A stretch of DNA of 32,000 nt from Gemmata obscuriglobus (GCF_008065095.1 NZ_CP042911.1:6090001-6122000), one strand, 5' to 3'. Positions 3,521-25,903 are shown, numbered from the stretch's first letter. Notes: generated from the sequence alone by a model not told the origin. Program-made: numbers and translations.

Positions 3521-3740
3521 CCAGTAGTTTCAAGTTCGCGCCGGGCAGGGGTTCTGGCCTTTGAGTGTGGTCCGCTCACTCCGTGAGCGGCCGCGCCGCG
3601 CACCAGATTAGCTCCGCGAGCTTGCTGGCCCCATCGTTGTGCGCAACGCGAATTCGATATTTGAAGCGACCGCTCACGGAGTGAGCGGACCACACTCAGA
3701 ACCACGGCACGGGTACTCCACGCCCACTTGAAACTACTGG
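3521..3740. repeat. composite nested inverted repeat (MITE/REP-like element)
   Basis: Outer arms 3521-3535 ccagtagtttcaagt and 3726-3740 acttgaaactactgg are complementary at 15/15. Inner arms 3562-3590 and 3670-3698 are complementary at 29/29. Each inner arm contains its own 8-bp palindrome ccgctcac-N3-gtgagcgg. Confidence 0.85.
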
Positions 3741-3758
3741 GTTCCGGCTCTCTGGTTT

Positions 3759-3831
3759 CAGTCCGCAAGCCGTCAAGTCGAAGATCAACTCGCATGGAGC
3801 GAAGGTCTTCAACTTGACGGCTTGCGGACTG
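3759..3831. repeat. long hairpin (20-bp perfect stem, extendable to about 27 bp)
   Basis: 3759-3778 cagtccgcaagccgtcaagt is the exact reverse complement of 3812-3831 acttgacggcttgcggactg. Pairing continues inward with one mismatch and one G-U. It lies between convergent genes. Confidence 0.8.
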
Positions 3832-3936
3832 ATTCACTTTACGCCTGAACGACACCCACTCACCACCAATCACCAGACAATCACCTTGCCAGTTCTGCAT
3901 GGCATCACGGGACCTCGATTTACACCTACCGCAGCG

Positions 3937-5468: not shown

Positions 5469-5582
5469 CCGGAGCGAACCACAGAGGTGCCGAGGCGCGC
5501 AGAAAGGCGTGATGGGGAGAATGCCGTTCAACGCTCCCTCTCTGGCCTTTCTATGCCTCAGCGTCGCTGTGGTTCGCTCCGG
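5469..5582 (-). repeat. intra-operon long hairpin between floA and the downstream gene
   Basis: 5469-5484 ccggagcgaaccacag is the exact reverse complement of 5567-5582 ctgtggttcgctccgg (16/16). Nested inner stems include gaggc..agaaaggc / gcctttct..gcctc and gggag/ctccc. Confidence 0.75.
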
Positions 5583-5597: not shown

Positions 5598-6710
5598 TTA
5601 ACGGCCCGACCCGCTCTGCCCCTCGGCGCCGCCGGTCATGGTGGCGATGTTGTTCCGCATCAGCGTGTCGGACTGCACGTTCTTCATGTTGTAGAAGTCC
5701 ATCACGCCCAGGTTCCCCTTCTGGAACGCGTCCGCGATGGCCTGCGGCACCTGTGCCTCGGCCTCCACGACCTTCGCGCGGTTCTCCTCGACGAGGGCGC
5801 GCATCTCCTGCTCGCGGGCGACGGCGGCGGCGCGGCGCTTCTCGGCTTCGGCCTGCGCGACCCGGAGGTCGGCGGCGGCCTGGTCGGCCTGGAGCTTCGC
5901 GCCGATGTTCTCGCCGACTTCGATGTGCGCGATGTCGATCGAGACGATCTCGAACGCGGTCTGGGCGTCGAGCGCGTTGTGCAGCACGGTCTGCGAAATC
6001 ATGCCGGGGTTCGCCAGCACCTCCTTGTGGTCGTGGGCGGAACCGATCGCCTTCACGATGCCCTCGCCGACGCGGGCGATGATGGTCTCTTCCGTCGCCC
6101 CGCCGACCAGCCGCTCCAGCTTCGTCCGCACGGTCACGCGGGCCTTCGCCAGGAGCTGAATGCCGTTGCGGCACACGGCGTCGAGGAACTGCTTGCCCTT
6201 CGCGGGGTCCGGGCAGTCGATCACCTTCGGGTTCACGCTCGTGCGGACCGCTTCCAGCACGTCGCGGCCGGCGAGGTCGATGGCCGCGGCCGTGCGCCAC
6301 GGCAGGTCGAGGCCGGCCTTGTGCGCCGCGATCACCGCCGTGGCGGTCTTGGGCACGTTGCCGCGGGCCAAAAAGTGCGACTCGAGTTCGCCGGTGGTGA
6401 CCCGCACGCCGGCCTGCACCAGCGCGATCTTCTGGCGCACGATCATCGCGTAGTCGACGTTCCGCAGCTTCATCCCGACGAGGCTCCCGATGCCGATGTC
6501 GGCCTTCGTGAGCAGCGCCTGGATCCAGAGCCGGATGAAGCTGAAGAACAGGAACAGGAACACCACGAAGATGAGGGCCGCGACCAGCGCCACCACGATG
6601 ATGATGATGCTGGCGGTGCTGATGTTGTTCGGCCCGCCGTCCTTGCCCGCGTCCTTGCCGAACTGGGCGAACAGGGCGAGGGCGGGCGCGAGCGTCGTCG
6701 AAAGCGTCAC
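5598..6710 (-). CDS. floA: flotillin-like protein FloA (UPF0365/YqfA family)
   Basis: N-terminal TM, then ...[27 protein letters not shown]..., a SPFH-like core and a C-terminal Ala/Glu-rich coiled coil [24 protein letters not shown] start at 6708-6710. NfeD genes lie upstream as in the B. subtilis yqeZ-floA arrangement. Confidence 0.9.
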
Positions 6711-6790
6711 GGGTGCTGGTCCTTTCGGTTGTCGGGCCGGTCCCGGACCGGCTCACCTGGGCCTGTGTACGGTCGCGGGCGCGCCGCGGT

Positions 6791-7423
6791 TCAAATCTTA
6801 TCGAGGCCGATGTCGAAGTCGTCGAAGTCGTCCCGCGGGCGCGTCGGCTCTTCTTTTCTGGGCTCCGCCGCCCGGGGCTGTTCGCTCGCCGGCGCTACCG
6901 GTTTATTGATGGGAGCGGCGGGGGCGGCCGCTTCCAGGTCCGACACGTCCGGCACCGACTCCAACTCGCGGACGATGACCTTGCCGCCCTTCACCTCCAC
7001 GCACCGCACCCACACGCCGGCGCCGAGCATCATGCCCTCGGTCATCGCGTCCACGCGCTTCCCGTCGAACTCGACCGACCCCGAGGGGCGCATGGGGGAA
7101 ACGGTTCTGCCGGTCCGGCCCTTCAGTACCGGTTCTGCGGCCGCCGCGGCCTCCGTGCGAGAGCCGTCGAGGGCGTTGTCGAGCGACATCCGGCGCCACG
7201 CCGAAACCGCCACGAACCCCGCGGCCGGCAACCCGACCGACAGGCCCCCGAGGGCGACGAGCGCCTCAATGGTGGTGCCATAGTACAGGATGACGCCGAC
7301 CGCGAGCGCGAAGAAAACGAGCGCCCCGACCACCAAGACGCCGCCGGTCGGGATCAGGATCTCGGCGAGCAGCAGCCCCGCGCCGAGGGCCATCAGGACG
7401 AGTGCGATGGTCAGGTAATCCAT
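6791..7423 (-). CDS. NfeD-family protein, short form (TM region plus C-terminal OB-fold)
   Basis: Three or four N-terminal TM helices, then GRTGRTVSPMRPSGSVEFDGKRVDAMTEGMMLGAGVWVRCVEVKGGKVIVRE, typical of the NfeD OB domain. ATG at 7421-7423. Confidence 0.85.
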   Translation of the reverse strand: MDYLTIALVLMALGAGLLLAEILIPTGGVLVVGALVFFALAVGVILYYGTTIEALVALGGLSVGLPAAGFVAVSAWRRMSLDNALDGSRTEAAAAAEPVLKGRTGRTVSPMRPSGSVEFDGKRVDAMTEGMMLGAGVWVRCVEVKGGKVIVRELESVPDVSDLEAAAPAAPINKPVAPASEQPRAAEPRKEEPTRPRDDFDDFDIGLDKI

Positions 7424-7436
7424 GGCTTCGAGTGCG

Positions 7437-7544
7437 GAATTCGGAGTGCGGAACGCGAAACCGTAACAGCCGCGGAATGCGTAAGAGCGGAATCACTCCC
7501 GTTCTGGGTTTTATTCCGCGTTCCGAGTTCCGCACTCCGAATTC
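7437..7544. repeat. inverted repeat filling the nfeD-nfeD intergenic spacer (GGAAY heptad type)
   Basis: 7437-7454 gaattcggagtgcggaac is the exact reverse complement of 7527-7544 gttccgcactccgaattc (18/18). An inner 7-bp pair gcggaat/attccgc is also present. The left side reads GCGGAAT TCGGAGT GCGGAAC GCGAAAC with 7-nt period. Confidence 0.85.
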
Positions 7545-9731
7545 TCAGACTTCCTTGACCACGATCCGGGTGCCCTCGACGGCGATCACCTGAACGCGGG
7601 CGCCGCCGGGGACGAACCCGCCGTCGGACACCACGTCGACGAACTTCTCCCCGAACCGCACCACCCCGGCCGGGCGCAGGGCGGTGCTCGTGGTCCCGAT
7701 CGCGCCCATCAGCTCGGCGGCCTCGCTGGCCCCGGGCAGTTGCGCTTCGGCGGCCTCGGGCAGATCGCTCGGCGGGCTCAGCATCATCCGGTTGGCGTAC
7801 GGCACCTGGGGCAGGAACCGGCCGATCAGCAGCGCCGCCACCATCGCGCCCATCATCGCGAAGAGGTAGGTCGAGATCCGCACGCCCAGGTTCACCCACT
7901 CCGCGCTGTTCTGGGGCACCCGGTCGATGGTGACAACGCCCAGCCCGGCGAGCATGAAGAGGATGCCGCTGATCCCGCACACCCCGAACCCCGGCAGCAC
8001 GAAGATCTCCAGCCCGACCAGCACCAGCCCGAGCAGGAACAGCAGCAGCGCCAGGACGAACATCTCCCCGCTGAACCGGGACTGCGACCAGAACACCAGG
8101 ATGAAGCACAGCGCGGCGACGATCCCGGGGACCGTCAGGCCCGGCACTTTCAGTTCCAGAATGAGCCCGATGAAGCCGATCATCACCAGGATGATGGTCA
8201 CCGCCGGGATGCGCAGGAACTCGGCCAGCCGGTCCAGGATGCCCGGGTCCGGGCTCTTCGCCTCTCCGACGCCGTACAGCGCGCACACGTCCTTCACGTT
8301 AGTGGTCGGCACCAGGAACCGGGCCACCCCCAGCTCGGCCGCGAGCGTCGCGGTCAGCTTCAGCGGCACGGTCCGCGGCTTGACGACCTTGTCCTCGTCC
8401 CACGCGCCGGCCTTCTTCTCGGTCTCGAACTGCTCCCGCGTGAACAGGCGGGTCTTGTTGCGGTCGTTGCCCTTGCCCTTGGCCCGCACGACCTCGGTCT
8501 CGCGGTCGAGCAGCCCCTGGATCAGCACCGGCGAGTAGCCGCGCTGGGCGGCCAGGGCCATCAGGCTCTCCGCCTGCGCGGCGCGGGTCGACGGCTTGAC
8601 GGTCCGCAGGTACTGCTCAAAGTTGCCGAACTCGGCCTCCTGCGCCTCGGCGTCCGTCGGCTTGGTCATCACGATCTCGGAGCACCCCAGCGCGACCACC
8701 GCCGCGGCGTCCGGCGCCGCCTCGGGGACGAACGCGACGATCTGGAGCGCGTCCTCGCCGGTCTGGGCCGCGGCCAGATCCTCCGCCAGCCCGCGGGCGG
8801 CATCAAGGTCGGTGCCGCCGCACCGCAGCACCAGCACCAAGAAGTTCCCCTTCTTCTTGCGGACGTCGCGGATGACCCGGTTGACCGACTCCCGCATCGC
8901 CCCGTCCACGTCGCCCGTCAGGGTCCACTGGTACGGGTCGGGGACGCGCCCGGCGAGCGGGTCGCCGTTGATGACCGCGGGCGGCAGGTTGTACAGCTCG
9001 GCCACCTCCGCGCGCGACTCCGCGGTGCCGTCGGCCAGCCCCACGGACTTCGCGGCGTCGGTCGGGTAGGTCGCCAGCTGGCCGTCCTGAACCTTCGTTA
9101 CTTGCTCGACCCCGACCACCTGTTTGAGTGACGCCTCGTCGTTGCGGTCGGCGTAGCGGGTGGCGCCGGTCTTCGCGTCCTTGCCGCGCACCAGCGACAC
9201 CTTCGGGTCGAACATCTTCTGCACCACCGGCCAGCGGTCGTCGCGGTTGAACCGGGTCTTGTACGCGACCTGTTCGGACGCGTCGAGCGGCGGCACCCCT
9301 TCCGCGGCCACCGGCCCGACGGCCGCGCCCTTCGCCATCAGCACCTCTTTGCAGGCGATGACCGGGAGGACGGTGTGCCCGCTGACGGTCCCGCGGACGA
9401 ACGCCACGGTCCGCACGCCGGCCAGCCGCGGGGCGCTGAGGAACTTGGCCAGGTCGGCGCAGGGGCCGAAGTTGGGGGTGAGTGCGGGCTTCCCGTCGGG
9501 GTTGAAGTCGAGCACCAGGGTGGAGATCCGGCGCTCCTCGTTCTTCTCGTTGACCCGGGCCGCCACCTGGTTCTCGATGCGGGCGACCGTGTCGCTGGTG
9601 ATCGGGGTCTGGACCGTCACGAACATCGCGTCACGAACCGCCTCCTGGGCGACCGCCGCGGGGGCGGTCAGGAGCAACCCGACGAGGGCCAGGGCCCGGA
9701 GCCCCGTGAAGCGGTACAGAGATGCGCGCAT
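7545..9731 (-). CDS. NfeD-family membrane-bound protease-like protein, long form (periplasmic ClpP/S49-like modules, TM bundle, OB-fold)
   Basis: Signal peptide MRASLYRFTGLRALALVGLLLTAPAAVAQ. The C-terminal multi-TM block is IGFIGLILELKVPGLTVPGIVAAL.., and the terminal OB motif is GTTSTALRPAGVVRFGEKFVDVVSDGGFVPGGARVQVIAVEGTRIVVKEV. Confidence 0.85.
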   Translation of the reverse strand: MRASLYRFTGLRALALVGLLLTAPAAVAQEAVRDAMFVTVQTPITSDTVARIENQVAARVNEKNEERRISTLVLDFNPDGKPALTPNFGPCADLAKFLSAPRLAGVRTVAFVRGTVSGHTVLPVIACKEVLMAKGAAVGPVAAEGVPPLDASEQVAYKTRFNRDDRWPVVQKMFDPKVSLVRGKDAKTGATRYADRNDEASLKQVVGVEQVTKVQDGQLATYPTDAAKSVGLADGTAESRAEVAELYNLPPAVINGDPLAGRVPDPYQWTLTGDVDGAMRESVNRVIRDVRKKKGNFLVLVLRCGGTDLDAARGLAEDLAAAQTGEDALQIVAFVPEAAPDAAAVVALGCSEIVMTKPTDAEAQEAEFGNFEQYLRTVKPSTRAAQAESLMALAAQRGYSPVLIQGLLDRETEVVRAKGKGNDRNKTRLFTREQFETEKKAGAWDEDKVVKPRTVPLKLTATLAAELGVARFLVPTTNVKDVCALYGVGEAKSPDPGILDRLAEFLRIPAVTIILVMIGFIGLILELKVPGLTVPGIVAALCFILVFWSQSRFSGEMFVLALLLFLLGLVLVGLEIFVLPGFGVCGISGILFMLAGLGVVTIDRVPQNSAEWVNLGVRISTYLFAMMGAMVAALLIGRFLPQVPYANRMMLSPPSDLPEAAEAQLPGASEAAELMGAIGTTSTALRPAGVVRFGEKFVDVVSDGGFVPGGARVQVIAVEGTRIVVKEV

Positions 9732-10160
9732 CGTTCGTCGTTCCTTTTGGTGCGCGTAAAAGGCGCGCCACCCAGGCAGATTATAACGCCCCTACGGTAG
9801 CACGCCAAAGAACGTTCTCGCGCCATTCCGCGCAACCGCGGGACCGCGGCGCGCCCTTCGCACAACCGCACGCCGACATTACCTGATTCGCCCAGAGAGC
9901 CCGTTTCTCCGCCGCGCCGGACCGATTGTGCCGAGTTTAGCGAGTTAATATGCGCAGTCTGAGATGAATAGTTTGATTCCGCGTCTGCGCGGGGATTGCG
10001 GGAACAGAACAGTGGTATTAGGTTTATGGAAGATGGCGAAGATGGGCTGTTAGGTTGTGCGGACGGGATCGGCGGTGCGTGTTCGGAGCTGACCCGGGGT
10101 GGCGTGACGTGTCGTTTCTCCTCACGGACGGGGGCGGGAACGGCCGATTGGGGTGGCGTC

Positions 10161-13075: not shown

Positions 13076-13208
13076 GCGTGCCTTCCCACTTCAGTGATGC
13101 CCGCGGGTATTCTCGCACCCGTGAGCACCGCTGTCACGCGATGACGCCCCGCGCACCCGTTCCGGTCCCGTGTTGCAGTTGCCGGCTACGAAGTGGGGCC
13201 GGACCTCA

Positions 13209-13261
13209 ACGAGCCCGCGGCGTGAAGGGGCACCGTGTGCCCCTTCACGCCGCGGGCTCGT
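13209..13261 (-). terminator. 25-bp perfect hairpin downstream of the pirin gene (I-shaped terminator candidate)
   Basis: 13210-13233 cgagcccgcggcgtgaaggggcac is the exact reverse complement of 13237-13260, with a 3-nt loop and an extra A-T pair at 13209/13261. It lies 39 nt after the pirin stop. There is no U-tract. Confidence 0.6.
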
Positions 13262-13299
13262 CGAAACAATGTGTGACCGCAACCGGATCCGGGCACGCG

Positions 13300-15660: not shown

Positions 15661-15772
15661 GAGGCGGAAATGTGGATGCCGGAGGCGCGGTGCTCAAACT
15701 GATCGCCCCGCGCCACGCGCAAAAGCAGCCCGCACGATCTGATTCACGACCCGGCTGGTGGTATCTGTTTCT

Positions 15773-15838
15773 TGTGGCACAGACATTCCTGTCTGTGCAG
15801 GGCGATAAGGCCGCACAGACAGGAATGTCTGTGCCACA
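15773..15838 (-). terminator. 26-bp perfect inverted repeat with self-palindromic arms, downstream of the PepSY gene
   Basis: 15773-15798 tgtggcacagacattcctgtctgtgc is the exact reverse complement of 15813-15838, with a 14-nt spacer. Each arm is itself gcacagaca-N4-tgtctgtgc. It lies 51 nt after the stop at 15889. Confidence 0.6.
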
Positions 15839-15888
15839 AAGACAAAAACCAAAACAGACAGCACCAACCGGATTGTGAGTGAATGAGG

Positions 15889-18326: not shown

Positions 18327-18477
18327 TAGGACAGCTTTACATTATCTGCGGATTGGATACTGTCAACATTCGAGCAGGAAATATCGCACTGAAACGCTCC
18401 GGGTTCGGTGGACCGGGGCGTGGGTGCGGGGTGGCGCGTGAAATTGCGTCTCAGTTCCAAGTGGTGAGAAGCTACCG

Positions 18478-18654
18478 ATGAGCGATAAAGACCCAGAGGA
18501 TGACCGCGACGAACCTGCTGCGACGGGCGGGTCCGAGCGGACCATCCAGGCGGACGAATTGTTCGCGGGCAAACGTGAGGTGTGGATCGAGCTGGAAGGC
18601 GTGCGCTACCGGTTACGGATCACACGCCGCGGCAAGCTGATTTTGCAGAAGTGA
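18478..18654 (+). CDS. hemP: HemP-family hemin-uptake small protein (58 aa, not in the ORF track)
   Basis: Hand translation gives MSDKDPEDDRDEPAATGGSERTIQADELFAGKREVWIELEGVRYRLRITRRGKLILQK*. The C-terminal ...EL..G.REV.IE..G..Y.LR.T..GKLIL.K matches the HemP (PF10636) pattern. Confidence 0.8.
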   Translation: MSDKDPEDDRDEPAATGGSERTIQADELFAGKREVWIELEGVRYRLRITRRGKLILQK

Positions 18655-18714
18655 GAATGACCTTGTCCGCGAGAGGGGCGTTTCCGGACCGCTGACAACG
18701 TCATTCTCACTTCT
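18647..18714. terminator. 15-bp hairpin spanning the convergent 3' ends of hemP and prmC
   Basis: 18648-18661 gaagtgagaatgac is the exact reverse complement of 18700-18713 gtcattctcacttc, plus an A-T pair at 18647/18714. The arms include the stop codons of both genes. Confidence 0.5.
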
Positions 18715-20863: not shown

Positions 20864-21224
20864 CTGTACACCCCGAAACGGCGCGCGAGGGCCGCAGACA
20901 GCATACGGACGCCGGCCCGTGCGCGTCGTTTCAGTGCCGCACTCCGCGGCCTCAACAGGCAGCGCGTGGCGCGAACGAAAGCGGCTTCGCCTTCACGGCC
21001 GCCGTGCCGCAGAGCGCGACGGGGCGGCGCCACGCAAAGCAATTTCTTTGGTGCCAAGAAGCGCGACCGGGCAAACGGCACACAGAGAAGCCCGCGGCGG
21101 AGCAACCACCGCGGACCGATCGCCCCGCGCCGCCCGCGCGGGTGAGCGGAGCGCAACCCGGCGTTGCGACATCAGAGTTGTAGGCGCTCCGATTCGACCG
21201 GGTGAGCGTGGCCCGGGCCGACTT

Positions 21225-21344
21225 CAGTCGTTTCAGGTTCCAGGGTCCAAGTTCCAAGTGGAGTCACGAGCGACACGAATCGCCGGCGCCTGTGACGAGT
21301 TGGGTTCCGACTTGGAACTTGGAACCTGGAACCTGAAACGACTG
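21225..21344. repeat. 35-bp near-perfect inverted repeat made of GGAAC/GTTCC heptads
   Basis: 21225-21259 cagtcgtttcaggttccagggtccaagttccaagt pairs with 21310-21344 acttggaacttggaacctggaacctgaaacgactg at 34/35. GGAAC starts at 21314, 21321 and 21328, and GAAAC at 21335, all 7 nt apart. It lies 32 nt after the thiC stop. Confidence 0.85.
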
Positions 21345-21375
21345 GAATCGGTCTACGGCCCGCGGCCCTCGCCTC

Positions 21376-22953
<1,578 letters not shown>

Positions 22954-24049: not shown

Positions 24050-24387
24050 TCGCCCCTCGCAAGCCATTGCGAACACGAAGGTGGCGACCGCAGACAGCTC
24101 GATCCCGACCCACGTCACAACTTCTATCGGCTGGCGCCCGGGCAAACTTTAGCGGCTCGAACGATTAGCACGAATGTATCGAACAGATGGTCTACGCGGC
24201 CATCCCGGCTTGTGCCACCAACGTCACTCACCCACAGTGCCACGACACGTTCCCGCCTCGAACGAGCGGGCCGCGGATCCGGTCCCTTGCAACGAAGGCA
24301 GAAGCTCGGGAGGGCATCGGGGTTTGGTGCTGTCGGCCGGACCTGCTATAAGTGGTTCAGCACAAGCTGCGCACCTGGGAAGGTTTC

Positions 24388-25824
24388 ATGGACCCGACCG
24401 AACTCCGCGATCTGGACGCGGCCCGCCGGTACATTCTGGACGGGTTGCTGCTCCAGCGCGCGGTCAAGCCCACCGCCAACACCGTCCGGCGCGCCCTCGA
24501 GTGGGCGATGGAAATCGCGTCCGAAGGCGACCCGCTCCCGCCGATCGGGTTCGTGGCCGACGTCGGGCACGTCGCGCTCGGCGTGGACACCGACCAGCGG
24601 GCGCGAGAAGCCCACCCGGTGCCCGGGTGGCCGCCGGCGTTGGGGCGCAGCTACGAGGACCACGTCCTCGGCAAGCTCTACGCCGACTGGACCTTCGAGC
24701 GCGCCGGCGACGCGCTGCGGAAGTACAAGGACCGTGACCGCGTCCGCGGGCTGGCCTACCTGGTGCGCCAGATTTGTGACCGGGCCGGGTTCGCCGGGGT
24801 GCTGCTCCCGCCGGCCGTGATCCGGTCGCTCCAGACCACCAACCCCGACGAGATCATCAAGTCGTCCTACGACGAACTGGTCCGCGACGGCCCGCTCCCG
24901 CTGCTCGTGCAGCTCTACGAGGCGCTCGTGGCGGCCGGGCGGCGCACCGCCGAGGTGTTGGCCCTCGAAGACATCCTCGCGATCGAACAGGGCACCGCGA
25001 TCGCCGACAAGGCGCACTACGTCGCGCACCGGCAGATCGTACAAACGACGGCCCGGCTCGAAGCGAAGCTCCCGGGCCGGCCGGTGAAGCCGCTCGTGGG
25101 CCGCAAAGAGGTTCCGACCCGCGTGATGGACGAGGACCAGTACCCGGTCGGCGGGTACACGTCGATCTCCACGAAGGGCTCGATCGAAAGCCTGCTGCAC
25201 TCGCAACTGGCGTACATGGAGCCGGAGAGCCCCGACCTGTTCGACATGAAGTTCGTGCGGGACGAGCTGTTCTACTACTCGCGCGACGAGAACCAGTTCC
25301 TCCGGCGCCGCCGCGCGTTCGTGTTCGTGCTGTACCCGGACCTGGTCACCGCCCGTTTCAAGGACGCCGACCTTCCCTACCAGCGGATCGTTCTGGTCCA
25401 GGCCACGATCCTGGCGCTCGTGCGGCGGTTGACCGAGTGGCTGAGCACGGACGCCATCCGCTTCGAGGTGCTGTTCGTGCAAGAGGGCGGGAAGAACCCG
25501 CTGACCGAAGAGGCAGCGCTGCTGAAGTTGCTGCTGCGCGAGCCGATCGAGCGCGGCGACGGCGAGGTGCTCGAGCTGCCCAACCAGGAGGCAATTGAGA
25601 AGCACCTGGGCACGCTGTCGCGCAGCGCGCAGGTCCACTGTCTCGCGGTCGCGGCCGAACCGGTCACGCTGGACCTAGAAACGGTGGTGGTGACGAAACT
25701 GATGGTGAAAGGGTCGCACCCGGTGATCAAGACCGGCAGCGTGCTTTCCGACCACCTCGACGGCGAGGACGCGTTCGATTTGTGGCAGAGCGTCGTGCTG
25801 CGGGCGCTGGAGTTGTGGGTGTGA
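24388..25824 (+). CDS. conserved-looking cytoplasmic hypothetical protein (478 aa), family not recognised
   Basis: High GC3, balanced composition and no TM helix or signal peptide. ATG at 24388 is preceded by GGAAGG. The opposite-strand 430-aa ORF has typical shadow-ORF composition (R/L/V/H/D/E-rich). Confidence 0.75.
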   Translation: MDPTELRDLDAARRYILDGLLLQRAVKPTANTVRRALEWAMEIASEGDPLPPIGFVADVGHVALGVDTDQRAREAHPVPGWPPALGRSYEDHVLGKLYADWTFERAGDALRKYKDRDRVRGLAYLVRQICDRAGFAGVLLPPAVIRSLQTTNPDEIIKSSYDELVRDGPLPLLVQLYEALVAAGRRTAEVLALEDILAIEQGTAIADKAHYVAHRQIVQTTARLEAKLPGRPVKPLVGRKEVPTRVMDEDQYPVGGYTSISTKGSIESLLHSQLAYMEPESPDLFDMKFVRDELFYYSRDENQFLRRRRAFVFVLYPDLVTARFKDADLPYQRIVLVQATILALVRRLTEWLSTDAIRFEVLFVQEGGKNPLTEEAALLKLLLREPIERGDGEVLELPNQEAIEKHLGTLSRSAQVHCLAVAAEPVTLDLETVVVTKLMVKGSHPVIKTGSVLSDHLDGEDAFDLWQSVVLRALELWV

Positions 25825-25877
25825 ACCGGGCTCCCGGTTCCGGATGCTCCGGCGCGCCCGGCCGCCCGCATTCCGCG

Positions 25878-25903
25878 GGAACCTGGAACTTGGAACGGGG
25901 AAC
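25878..25903. repeat. four tandem GGAAC heptads (solo half-element)
   Basis: GGAAC starts at 25878, 25885, 25892 and 25899, exactly 7 nt apart (gggaacc tggaact tggaacg gggaact). It is preceded by attccgc and followed by acacagacagcgaacc, which echoes aacagacagcaccaacc at 15853-15869. Confidence 0.75.

Follow-up and report, generated by a model that had tools for sequence, protein, structure and literature searches.

The 3' flank of thiC in Gemmata obscuriglobus contains an inverted pair of short heptanucleotide arrays, (GTTYCAR)4 / (YTGRAAC)4, and we propose, with about even confidence, that it is a slippage-grown inverted heptad pair which may act as a hairpin in the RNA at the end of the gene. 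A short seed would have grown in 7-nt steps by replication slippage, and the arms would have stayed complementary through selection for pairing or through template switching. The thiC transcript would run on into the GUUCC arm, and synthesis of the GGAAC arm would then let the RNA fold, from just past the UGA onwards, as an interrupted helix of about 60 bp. Such a helix may terminate the thiC message, which is under riboswitch control, or shield its 3' end, and may insulate the next same-strand genes from riboswitch-controlled transcription. We infer the slippage origin from the period of 7, from pairing that survives a shift of register and from a heptad excess that is independent of the unit, and the gene-end effect from position, stability and equivalent hairpins in relatives.

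The hairpin downstream of thiC

The window, by which we mean the whole stretch of 32,000 nucleotides that was analysed, has 68% G+C and includes a DUF1559/N-methyl gene, both in keeping with a planctomycete. The following features lie at the thiC locus.

21376-22704, minus strand: thiC, radical-SAM phosphomethylpyrimidine synthase (PF01964, E 9.6e-189)
21352-21375, minus strand: segment separating the main stem from the thiC stop codon, pairing weakly with 21201-21217 in the predicted fold
21310-21351, unstranded: right arm; 21310-21339 is AC TTGGAAC TTGGAAC CTGGAAC CTGAAAC, followed by GACTGGAATCGG
21260-21309, unstranded: spacer (loop) of 50 nt with a small inner stem-loop at roughly 21264-21296 (GTCAC...GTGAC)
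21218-21259, unstranded: left arm; heptad array 21230-21259 is GTTTCAG GTTCCAG GGTCCAA GTTCCAA GT
21218-21229: non-heptad outer part of the left arm, CCGACTTCAGTC
22827-22925, minus strand: TPP riboswitch aptamer in the thiC leader (RF00059, 49.3 bits, E 4.5e-8)
22705-22840, minus strand: heptad hairpin of a second family in the thiC leader, holding the GGAAY array 22723-22741

The first-pass annotation had described 35-nt arms (21225-21259 / 21310-21344) complementary at 34 of 35 positions and built from (C/T)TGGAAC three times plus CTGAAAC. The sequence bears out both statements: a single position differs in this 35-nt core, and the left arm is the complement of the right bar one G/T change. 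A repeat search lengthens the arms to 42 nt at 93% (21218-21259 / 21310-21351). Tandem Repeats Finder assigns period 7 to the left and the right arm, with 3.3-3.9 copies, and both arms, of four units each, pass a 17-of-21 period-7 test. The annotation had also named chance, given base composition, as a possible explanation, and the array lies far beyond it. There are nine copies of GGAAYNNGGAAY in the window against 0.22 expected, all of them outside genes, and five GGAAC-type arrays of at least three units against 0.00 expected. When the window was scanned for tandem periods, three period-7 segments were found, against 0-1 for each other period from 4 to 12 and 0.0 in shuffles.

Folded as RNA, 21200-21375 gives -109.8 kcal/mol on the minus (thiC) strand, against about -63 for shuffles (z -11.7), and -114.1 kcal/mol on the plus strand, against about -68 (z -10.3). 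The hairpin forms the 3' flank of thiC. Its first heptad lies 40 nt past the stop codon and a weaker outer helix lies right after the UGA; because 21352-21375 is predicted to pair weakly with 21201-21217, the structure would start directly 3' of the UGA. The arms are still 87% paired after a slide of 7 nt, that is, one unit. No Rfam family matches the hairpin at the gathering score, and at an E-value threshold there are only generic or spurious miRNA-precursor matches, far under the cut-offs. The ThiC protein is identical to that of G. obscuriglobus GCA_000171775.1, and other assemblies, all of this one strain, are either identical across their overlap with the hairpin or end inside an arm, and show no difference in the number of units.

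A terminator scan finds none at the hairpin and the stem is followed by no U-tract, so termination by this hairpin is a conjecture. On the thiC strand the 3' arm is followed by GACTGAAGTCGGCCCGG, and an intrinsic (Rho-independent) terminator was rejected. The hairpin can be likened to the U-tract-less hairpins of G+C-rich bacteria. The annotation's remark that a strict 7-nt period is not terminator-like holds: the period is a real property of the arms. The next same-strand ORF downstream starts 366 nt away, and we therefore see no coupling role for the hairpin.

At the other end of the gene, the TPP aptamer is skipped by a default Rfam scan because its 49.3 bits are below the gathering score of 54.3. 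The hairpin at 22705-22840 sits between this aptamer and the thiC ATG, and by this position it is the putative expression platform of the riboswitch.

Other arrays in the window

The first-pass annotation had listed five places with related sequence. Two of them, the array at 25876-25903 and the termini of the 3521-3740 element, hold up as relatives of the thiC hairpin; one is a chance octamer, and the remaining two (7436-7461 and 22723-22741) belong to the second family.

25876-25903, plus strand: unpaired array GGAAC CT GGAAC TT GGAAC GG GGAAC, a true 4-unit array of the YTGGAAC-type unit of the thiC hairpin
3521-3740, unstranded: nested inverted repeat whose termini, 3521-3540 / 3721-3740, carry CCAGTAGTTTCAAGT
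7430-7544, minus strand: second-family heptad hairpin, array 7436-7461 with its partner 7513-7544
18454-18461, minus strand: single CTTGGAAC octamer

The unpaired array begins 54 nt past the stop codon of ivWA and lies 87 nt ahead of the start of an ABC-2 permease gene. The ivWA gene (24352-25824, plus strand) encodes the vWA domain of FtsH ternary systems, and genes for fvmX6, fvmX5 and an FtsH-like AAA/M41 protease are found 7-9 kb to the left of the window (L459 9877-12626).

Within the 3521-3740 element the inner arms (3562-3594 / 3666-3698) are 97% matched. Over about 16 nt the CCAGTAGTTTCAAGT at both termini matches CCAGTCGTTTCAGGT of the outer arm of the thiC hairpin, with the common layout [AG]TTCCAG-NN-GTTTCAR-GT, and the element is therefore related to the thiC hairpin. 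About 0.7 CTTGGAAC octamers are expected by chance, so that 18454-18461 is no evidence of kinship and stands outside the family. A further motif, GTGAGCGG, occurs 10 times in the window against 3.1 expected (3579-3590, 3677-3688, 21142-21149 and others). Four of its copies make small palindromes, CCGCTCAC-N3-GTGAGCGG, within the 3521-3740 element, one copy lies 70 nt from the thiC hairpin, and the motif was not found in four related Gemmata loci.

The arrays at 7436-7461 and 22723-22741 have the unit NNCGGAA and serve as GGAAC-type 5' arms, the first in the hairpin 7430-7544 and the second in 22705-22840. The two hairpins align with each other at 78%, and their arm polarity is opposite to that of the thiC hairpin, for which reason we treat them as a second family. 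The hairpin at 7430-7544 occupies the whole gap between two NfeD genes (stop 7545, ATG 7423), spanning from 3 nt past the stop to 12 nt before the next ATG, a layout that could couple the translation of both NfeD genes. This gap is the first intercistronic gap of an NfeD-NfeD-FloA (flotillin) operon (5598-9731, minus strand). A Planctomycetia MAG (L053 7156-7188) carries CATTCCGCACTCCGCATTCCGCACTCCGC, a 14-nt double heptad equal to the TTCCGCACTCCGAATTC of the second family, which therefore extends beyond G. obscuriglobus.

Related Gemmata loci and the structure of gene ends

The thiC hairpin is not found at the orthologous site in four related Gemmata loci (L124-L127, ThiC 93-95% identical), and no GGAAC-type array was found in the 85 kb of these loci. 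In L124 a different long nested repeat, which starts with TCGTTTCAAGTT, lies 16 nt past the thiC stop, and in L126 a 10-bp GC hairpin follows right after thiC; neither has a U-tract. In L125 and L127 a convergent kinase gene lies 4 nt past the thiC stop. The thiC leader of L124 has, at the position of 22705-22840 in the window, a hairpin (9915-9997) with the heptad arms GATTGCA/TGCAATC. The presence of other hairpins at the equivalent L124 and L126 sites suggests that a hairpin persists at these places although its sequence changes, time and again being assembled from 7-nt units. As judged by these comparisons, the site after thiC appears to be conserved in function but not in sequence.

The 150 nt past the stop codon are exceptionally structured (z below -4.5) in 5 of the 21 window genes, those for FloA, the long NfeD, pirin, ThiC and a 368-residue hypothetical protein, with z from -4.8 to -11.6, whereas the z of mid-gene controls is never below -2.1. 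Gene-end hairpins without U-tracts thus seem to be the rule in the G. obscuriglobus genome. Very stable intergenic hairpins, none with heptads, are found at 13206-13264, 15772-15839 (27-nt perfect arms), 3758-3832, 5469-5582 and 18647-18714; one example, 3' of the pirin gene, has 28-nt arms, a 3-nt loop and a z of -11.6. It speaks against the gene-end reading of the thiC hairpin that a plain hairpin needs no heptad arms.

REP and BIME elements are extragenic hairpins that follow genes or separate tandem or convergent ones, in many cases no more than about 15 nt from the stop codon, and Liang, Rudd and Deutscher reportedly linked REPs in 2015 to mRNA 3'-end stability, termination and ribosome stalling. 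Like them, the thiC hairpin is an extragenic gene-end hairpin, in its case without a U-tract. A REP, however, is a fixed sequence of 20-40 nt present in hundreds of copies and tied to a RAYT, whereas the arms of the thiC hairpin are low-complexity heptads and no RAYT was found among 20 window proteins.

Is the hairpin a mobile element?

The annotation had suggested a mobile REP/MITE-like element. As a specific form of this idea, the hairpin would be a non-autonomous element with the terminal inverted repeats TTCCAGTNGTTTCARGT, mobilised in trans. The 21218-21351 and 3521-3740 elements do have about 16 nt in common, inverted, at either terminus, with interiors that differ, and the thiC hairpin lies exactly at the break of synteny with L124. 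Moreover, 3-4 short-read assemblies break in one or other of the two elements and a 2008 draft joins an arm to an unrelated kinase fragment, as would be expected of a dispersed repeat. Inverted repeats alone, however, account for the assembly breaks. Neither element has a target-site duplication: the flanks are CCCGGG / TCTACG at the thiC hairpin and TTCGGTT / GTTCCGG at 3521-3740, and no direct repeat of at least 4 nt abuts the arms of either. The interiors (21260-21309 and 3541-3720) are unrelated, so there is no conserved MITE-like interior, and elsewhere the same arms enclose loops of anything from 0 to 276 nt. Among the loci retrieved, the terminal motif CAGTNGTTTCARGT occurs beyond chance in no foreign locus, only in the same strain, of which about 41 kb hold only two elements with common termini, the thiC hairpin and 3521-3740; 9 kb gained to the left of the window hold no array. 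Finally, no transposase, RAYT or integrase was found by Pfam among 20 window proteins. With no target duplication, unshared interiors, an element missing from the site in four Gemmata loci and no transposase, we do not follow the annotation here and regard mobilisation in trans as very improbable.

The assemblies that break do so at definite points. Two short-read assemblies of the same strain, L002 (6615-6681) and L003 (2728-2773), end inside an arm of the thiC hairpin, and position 1 of both L459 and L460 corresponds to position 3579 of the window, in the inner repeat of 3521-3740. In the 2008 draft contig ABGO01000234 (L001 11373-11374) the sequence passes, right after GTTTCAGG in the arm, into part of a Ser/Thr kinase gene foreign to the window; the join is probably chimeric.

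An integron attC site is another structure with a superficial likeness. Both are imperfect inverted repeats of variable length located after a gene, with 7-nt core sites that contain GTT and AAC. The polarity, however, is reversed, RYYYAAC...GTTRRRY in attC and GTTYCAR...YTGRAAC here (GTTTCAG opens the 5' arm and CTGAAAC closes the 3' arm). The 20 window proteins scanned include no integrase, the genes upstream of the arrays are housekeeping genes, and attC was rejected.

Arrays in other genomes

A scan for GGAACYTGGAACYTGGAAC with one genome per species found at least 120 loci, about 17 being expected in random sequence of equal size. Among the matches listed are Acidobacteriota, Bacteroidota, Verrucomicrobiota, Planctomycetota (Zavarzinella formosa DSM 19928, Fimbriiglobus and Frigoriglobus), Deltaproteobacteria, Chloroflexi, candidate phyla and others, and some of the MAGs listed hold 3-6 loci each. 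A metagenome scan with a 23-nt arm pattern gave at least 120 matches, those listed lying on contigs of 38-71% G+C. On viral contigs, the target pattern matched 27 stretches, against 33 for a period-8 version and 31 for a scrambled heptad. Measured against random sequence, any tandem repeat therefore looks more enriched than it is, and our claims rest on the comparison of periods and on strand biases, not on raw counts.

We surveyed 303 arrays, at loci chosen for carrying an array and with ORFs crudely called. Where a GTTCC (inverse) arm is present, it lies on the 5' side of the GGAAC array 95 times and on the 3' side 4 times. In the GTTCC reading direction, 74 arrays have the end of an ORF of at least 100 codons no more than 10 nt upstream, compared with 5 in the opposite sense and with 2.3% of random positions, and the distance from stop to array peaks at -1 to +8 nt. 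In the GGAAC direction, 31 arrays have the start of a long ORF no more than 10 nt downstream, compared with 11 in the opposite sense. These strand biases at stops and starts indicate that the GTT end of the array faces the adjacent gene, be it a gene end or a gene start. Two thirds of the arrays (202 of 303) are unpaired and the polarity rule holds for these as well (55:5 and 24:10), so that pairing alone cannot explain the rules. The paired arrays lie between tandem genes in 20 cases, convergent genes in 8 and divergent genes in 3. Identical arms with loops of 14 and 62 nt occur within one MAG (L053 and L111). The genes upstream of arrays are ordinary or housekeeping genes, for example those for Hsp70, SRP54, SmpB, ribosomal protein L5 and TsaD, and among 86 Pfam families in 62 upstream ORFs there is no transposase, no integrase and no functional pattern.

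The period of 7 is independent of the unit. Once all GGAAC arrays are masked, period-7 arrays still number 74 and 85 in the same loci, and those of any other period 0-13. In the 1.12 Mb that lie over 500 nt away from the seed arrays, period 7 accounts for 85 arrays and the other periods from 5 to 10 for 1-10; only 12 of the 85 come within one mismatch of GTTCCAR, and many are inverted pairs of other units. Together with the 87% pairing of the thiC arms when shifted by 7 nt, this excess fits the slippage-type growth of the repeat that the annotation had offered as one explanation. The sense strand of heptads of other units right after stop codons favours G over C by 54 cases to 13, and many of these heptads begin with GT. 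A Rho rut site, which C over G in GUUCCAA might suggest, was rejected on this count, since there is no general C-rich rule. Shine-Dalgarno mimicry by GGA, which fits the pre-start orientation, cannot explain the stronger post-stop bias.

Two pairs of orthologous contigs, L137 with L244 and L015 with L131, have flanks that are roughly 85-90% identical by eye. In both pairs the array is kept in the same place, with 4 and 4 units and with 12 and about 13 units respectively, and the differences are mostly single C/T changes. The similar numbers of units suggest that arrays persist rather than flicker. At L235 643-1454 two direct (GTTCCAG)3-4 arrays surround about 750 nt of a radical-SAM gene (RlmN-like, CxxxCxxC); the upstream array appears to lie within the reading frame, as an in-gene insertion or in a chimeric contig.

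A DNA-level regulatory site, either a set of ECF-sigma -35 boxes or a cruciform or operator for a dimeric DNA-binding protein, seems extremely improbable. GGAAC is the classic core of the ECF -35 element, the arrays lie in intergenic DNA, and their polarity is symmetric about the intergenic centre whatever the orientation of the genes. However, no CGT-type -10 lies at 16-17 nt from the units at 21314-21339, 25878-25903 or 22723-22741, and the right arm would fire antisense into thiC. An arm spacer of 0 to 276 nt is poorly suited to a dimeric operator, and a 50-nt loop disfavours cruciform extrusion. ECF-sigma promoters were rejected, with no CGT-type -10 at the right spacing in any array and an orientation that is wrong for the neighbours; a sigma-54-like TGGCAC...TTGC at about 21040 was rejected too, its spacing being 3-4 nt too long.

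Slippage, selection and a possible reader

The heptads may have arisen as a neutral by-product, through slippage and inverted duplication, the hairpin being tolerated in a non-coding gap. The absence of the thiC hairpin from the orthologous sites of the four Gemmata loci, whose 85 kb lack a GGAAC-type array, speaks for this. So do a unit-independent heptad excess, as from a mutational bias, a unit without special status in the viral controls and upstream genes without a functional pattern. Yet a 15:1 strand bias relative to the upstream gene, with arrays starting a few nt from the stop, is hard to obtain without selection or a directional process. The arm polarity of 95:4, the arrays of similar length kept in the diverged contigs L137/L244 and L015/L131, and arms that are still 93% complementary also count against neutrality. 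We consider it possible but doubtful.

Both the polarity rule and the stop-codon rule suggest that the process behind them is directional and acts on RNA. The annotation had also suggested a multimeric binding array for a protein or RNA. In a phased form of this idea, the heptads would be bound by a single-strand binder whose footprint is 7 nt, a cold-shock-domain protein for example; a binder on the first-made GUUCCAR arm would set the formation of the hairpin, making it a factor-controlled terminator or a coupling switch. We regard this as unlikely. It would account for an exact 7-nt period whatever the unit, for a GUUCC arm that is the 5' arm (95:4) and begins where ribosomes leave the RNA, and for the GT with which other post-stop heptads often begin. 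Bacillus subtilis CspB prefers GTCTTTG/T and binds dT7 (PMC1904285, PMC1636342), and Csp, S1 and CsrA were proposed for TAACTGA heptamer repeats (PMC4679880). However, the likeness to the CspB heptamer is loose, and arrays by start codons show the opposite strand in the mRNA. The units are very diverse, only 12 of the 85 distant arrays being within one mismatch of GTTCCAR, which argues against one sequence-specific reader. A more far-reaching version strikes us as decidedly improbable: (GTTCCAR)n and its complement would be a cross-phylum gene-boundary signal in nascent RNA, whose reader would be a conserved factor that covers 7 nt, such as a cold-shock-domain protein. The array would lie at the stop codon, where the ribosome is released, and occupancy of paired arrays by the factor would gate the hairpin, and hence transcription or translation into the next gene.

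Relation to known heptanucleotide repeats

Heptanucleotide repeats are over-represented in prokaryotes, and polymerase slippage has been proposed to explain them (Mrazek et al. 2007, as relayed in PMC4679880 and PMC4692102). Such long simple sequence repeats share with the thiC hairpin tandem units of exactly 7 nt, a mainly intergenic location, many different units and an excess of period 7; the thiC hairpin differs in being short (4 units per arm), imperfect and an inverted pair that makes a long hairpin.

Three further published systems are comparable. The GGGAATC repeats of Xanthomonas and the GGGGAYT repeats of Nostoc are intergenic and lie 0-50 nt from ORF boundaries (Rehm et al. 2015, PMC4692102). 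They are found on the coding strand after a stop and on the non-coding strand before a start, and occur in inverted pairs as potential stem-loops (PMC4692102). GTTCCAR arrays share with them both the strand rule and the inverted pairs, but GGGAATC and GGGGAYT are G-rich and form G-quadruplexes, whereas GTTCCAR lacks a G-run and the strand it presents after a stop is not rich in G. TAACTGA direct repeats, of 2-6 units, are known from marine Beggiatoaceae, Cyanobacteria and Bacteroidetes (MacGregor 2015, PMC4679880), where, across several phyla, they immediately precede start codons and keep to one orientation. They resemble GTTCCAR arrays in being heptamers, in their spread over several phyla and in neighbouring genes without a functional pattern. 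They differ in their unit, in being nearly all direct (one inverted set in 170) and in their emphasis on start codons, GTTCCAR arrays being mostly post-stop. In Geobacter metallireducens, multicopy intergenic elements of four or five heptads (GGGACCG, MTYCTGA) have been proposed to be regulatory (PMC2700814); the number of heptads is like that of the thiC hairpin, but the units are different, the elements were described from one genome and some are intragenic.

The arms of the thiC hairpin consist of at least three head-to-tail 7-nt units and occupy a non-coding site near an ORF boundary (thiC stop 21376, next ORF start 20863), and period 7 exceeds other periods in the same DNA, both in the window and in the carrier contigs. 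With these heptad-class features, and failing as a MITE, an intrinsic terminator and an attC site, the hairpin belongs to the known, unexplained class of heptanucleotide repeats. The annotation had supposed that the family may be undescribed. This applies to the unit alone, since GTTCCAR/YTGGAAC was not found as a string in the literature searched; the heptad class, the inverted pairs and the strand polarity have been published (PMC4692102, PMC4679880, PMC2700814). The cross-phylum reach of GTTCCAR, the fixed order of its arms and its adjacency to stop codons appear to be new quantitative observations.

Significance

A practical point for genome assembly is that heptad hairpins break short-read assemblies. 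Heptads have been noted for nearly twenty years as the commonest long simple repeats in bacteria. The thiC locus offers a concrete and well-placed example, after a riboswitch-controlled gene in a culturable planctomycete. Any mechanism has to obey the rules found here: a start at the stop codon, a 15:1 strand bias, a fixed order of arms and a period that is independent of the unit. If a reader protein or a role in termination were found, the arrays would constitute an element of gene boundaries that is shared by Planctomycetota, Acidobacteriota, Bacteroidota, Verrucomicrobiota and others, phyla in which, to our knowledge, classical terminators and Shine-Dalgarno sites are scarce.
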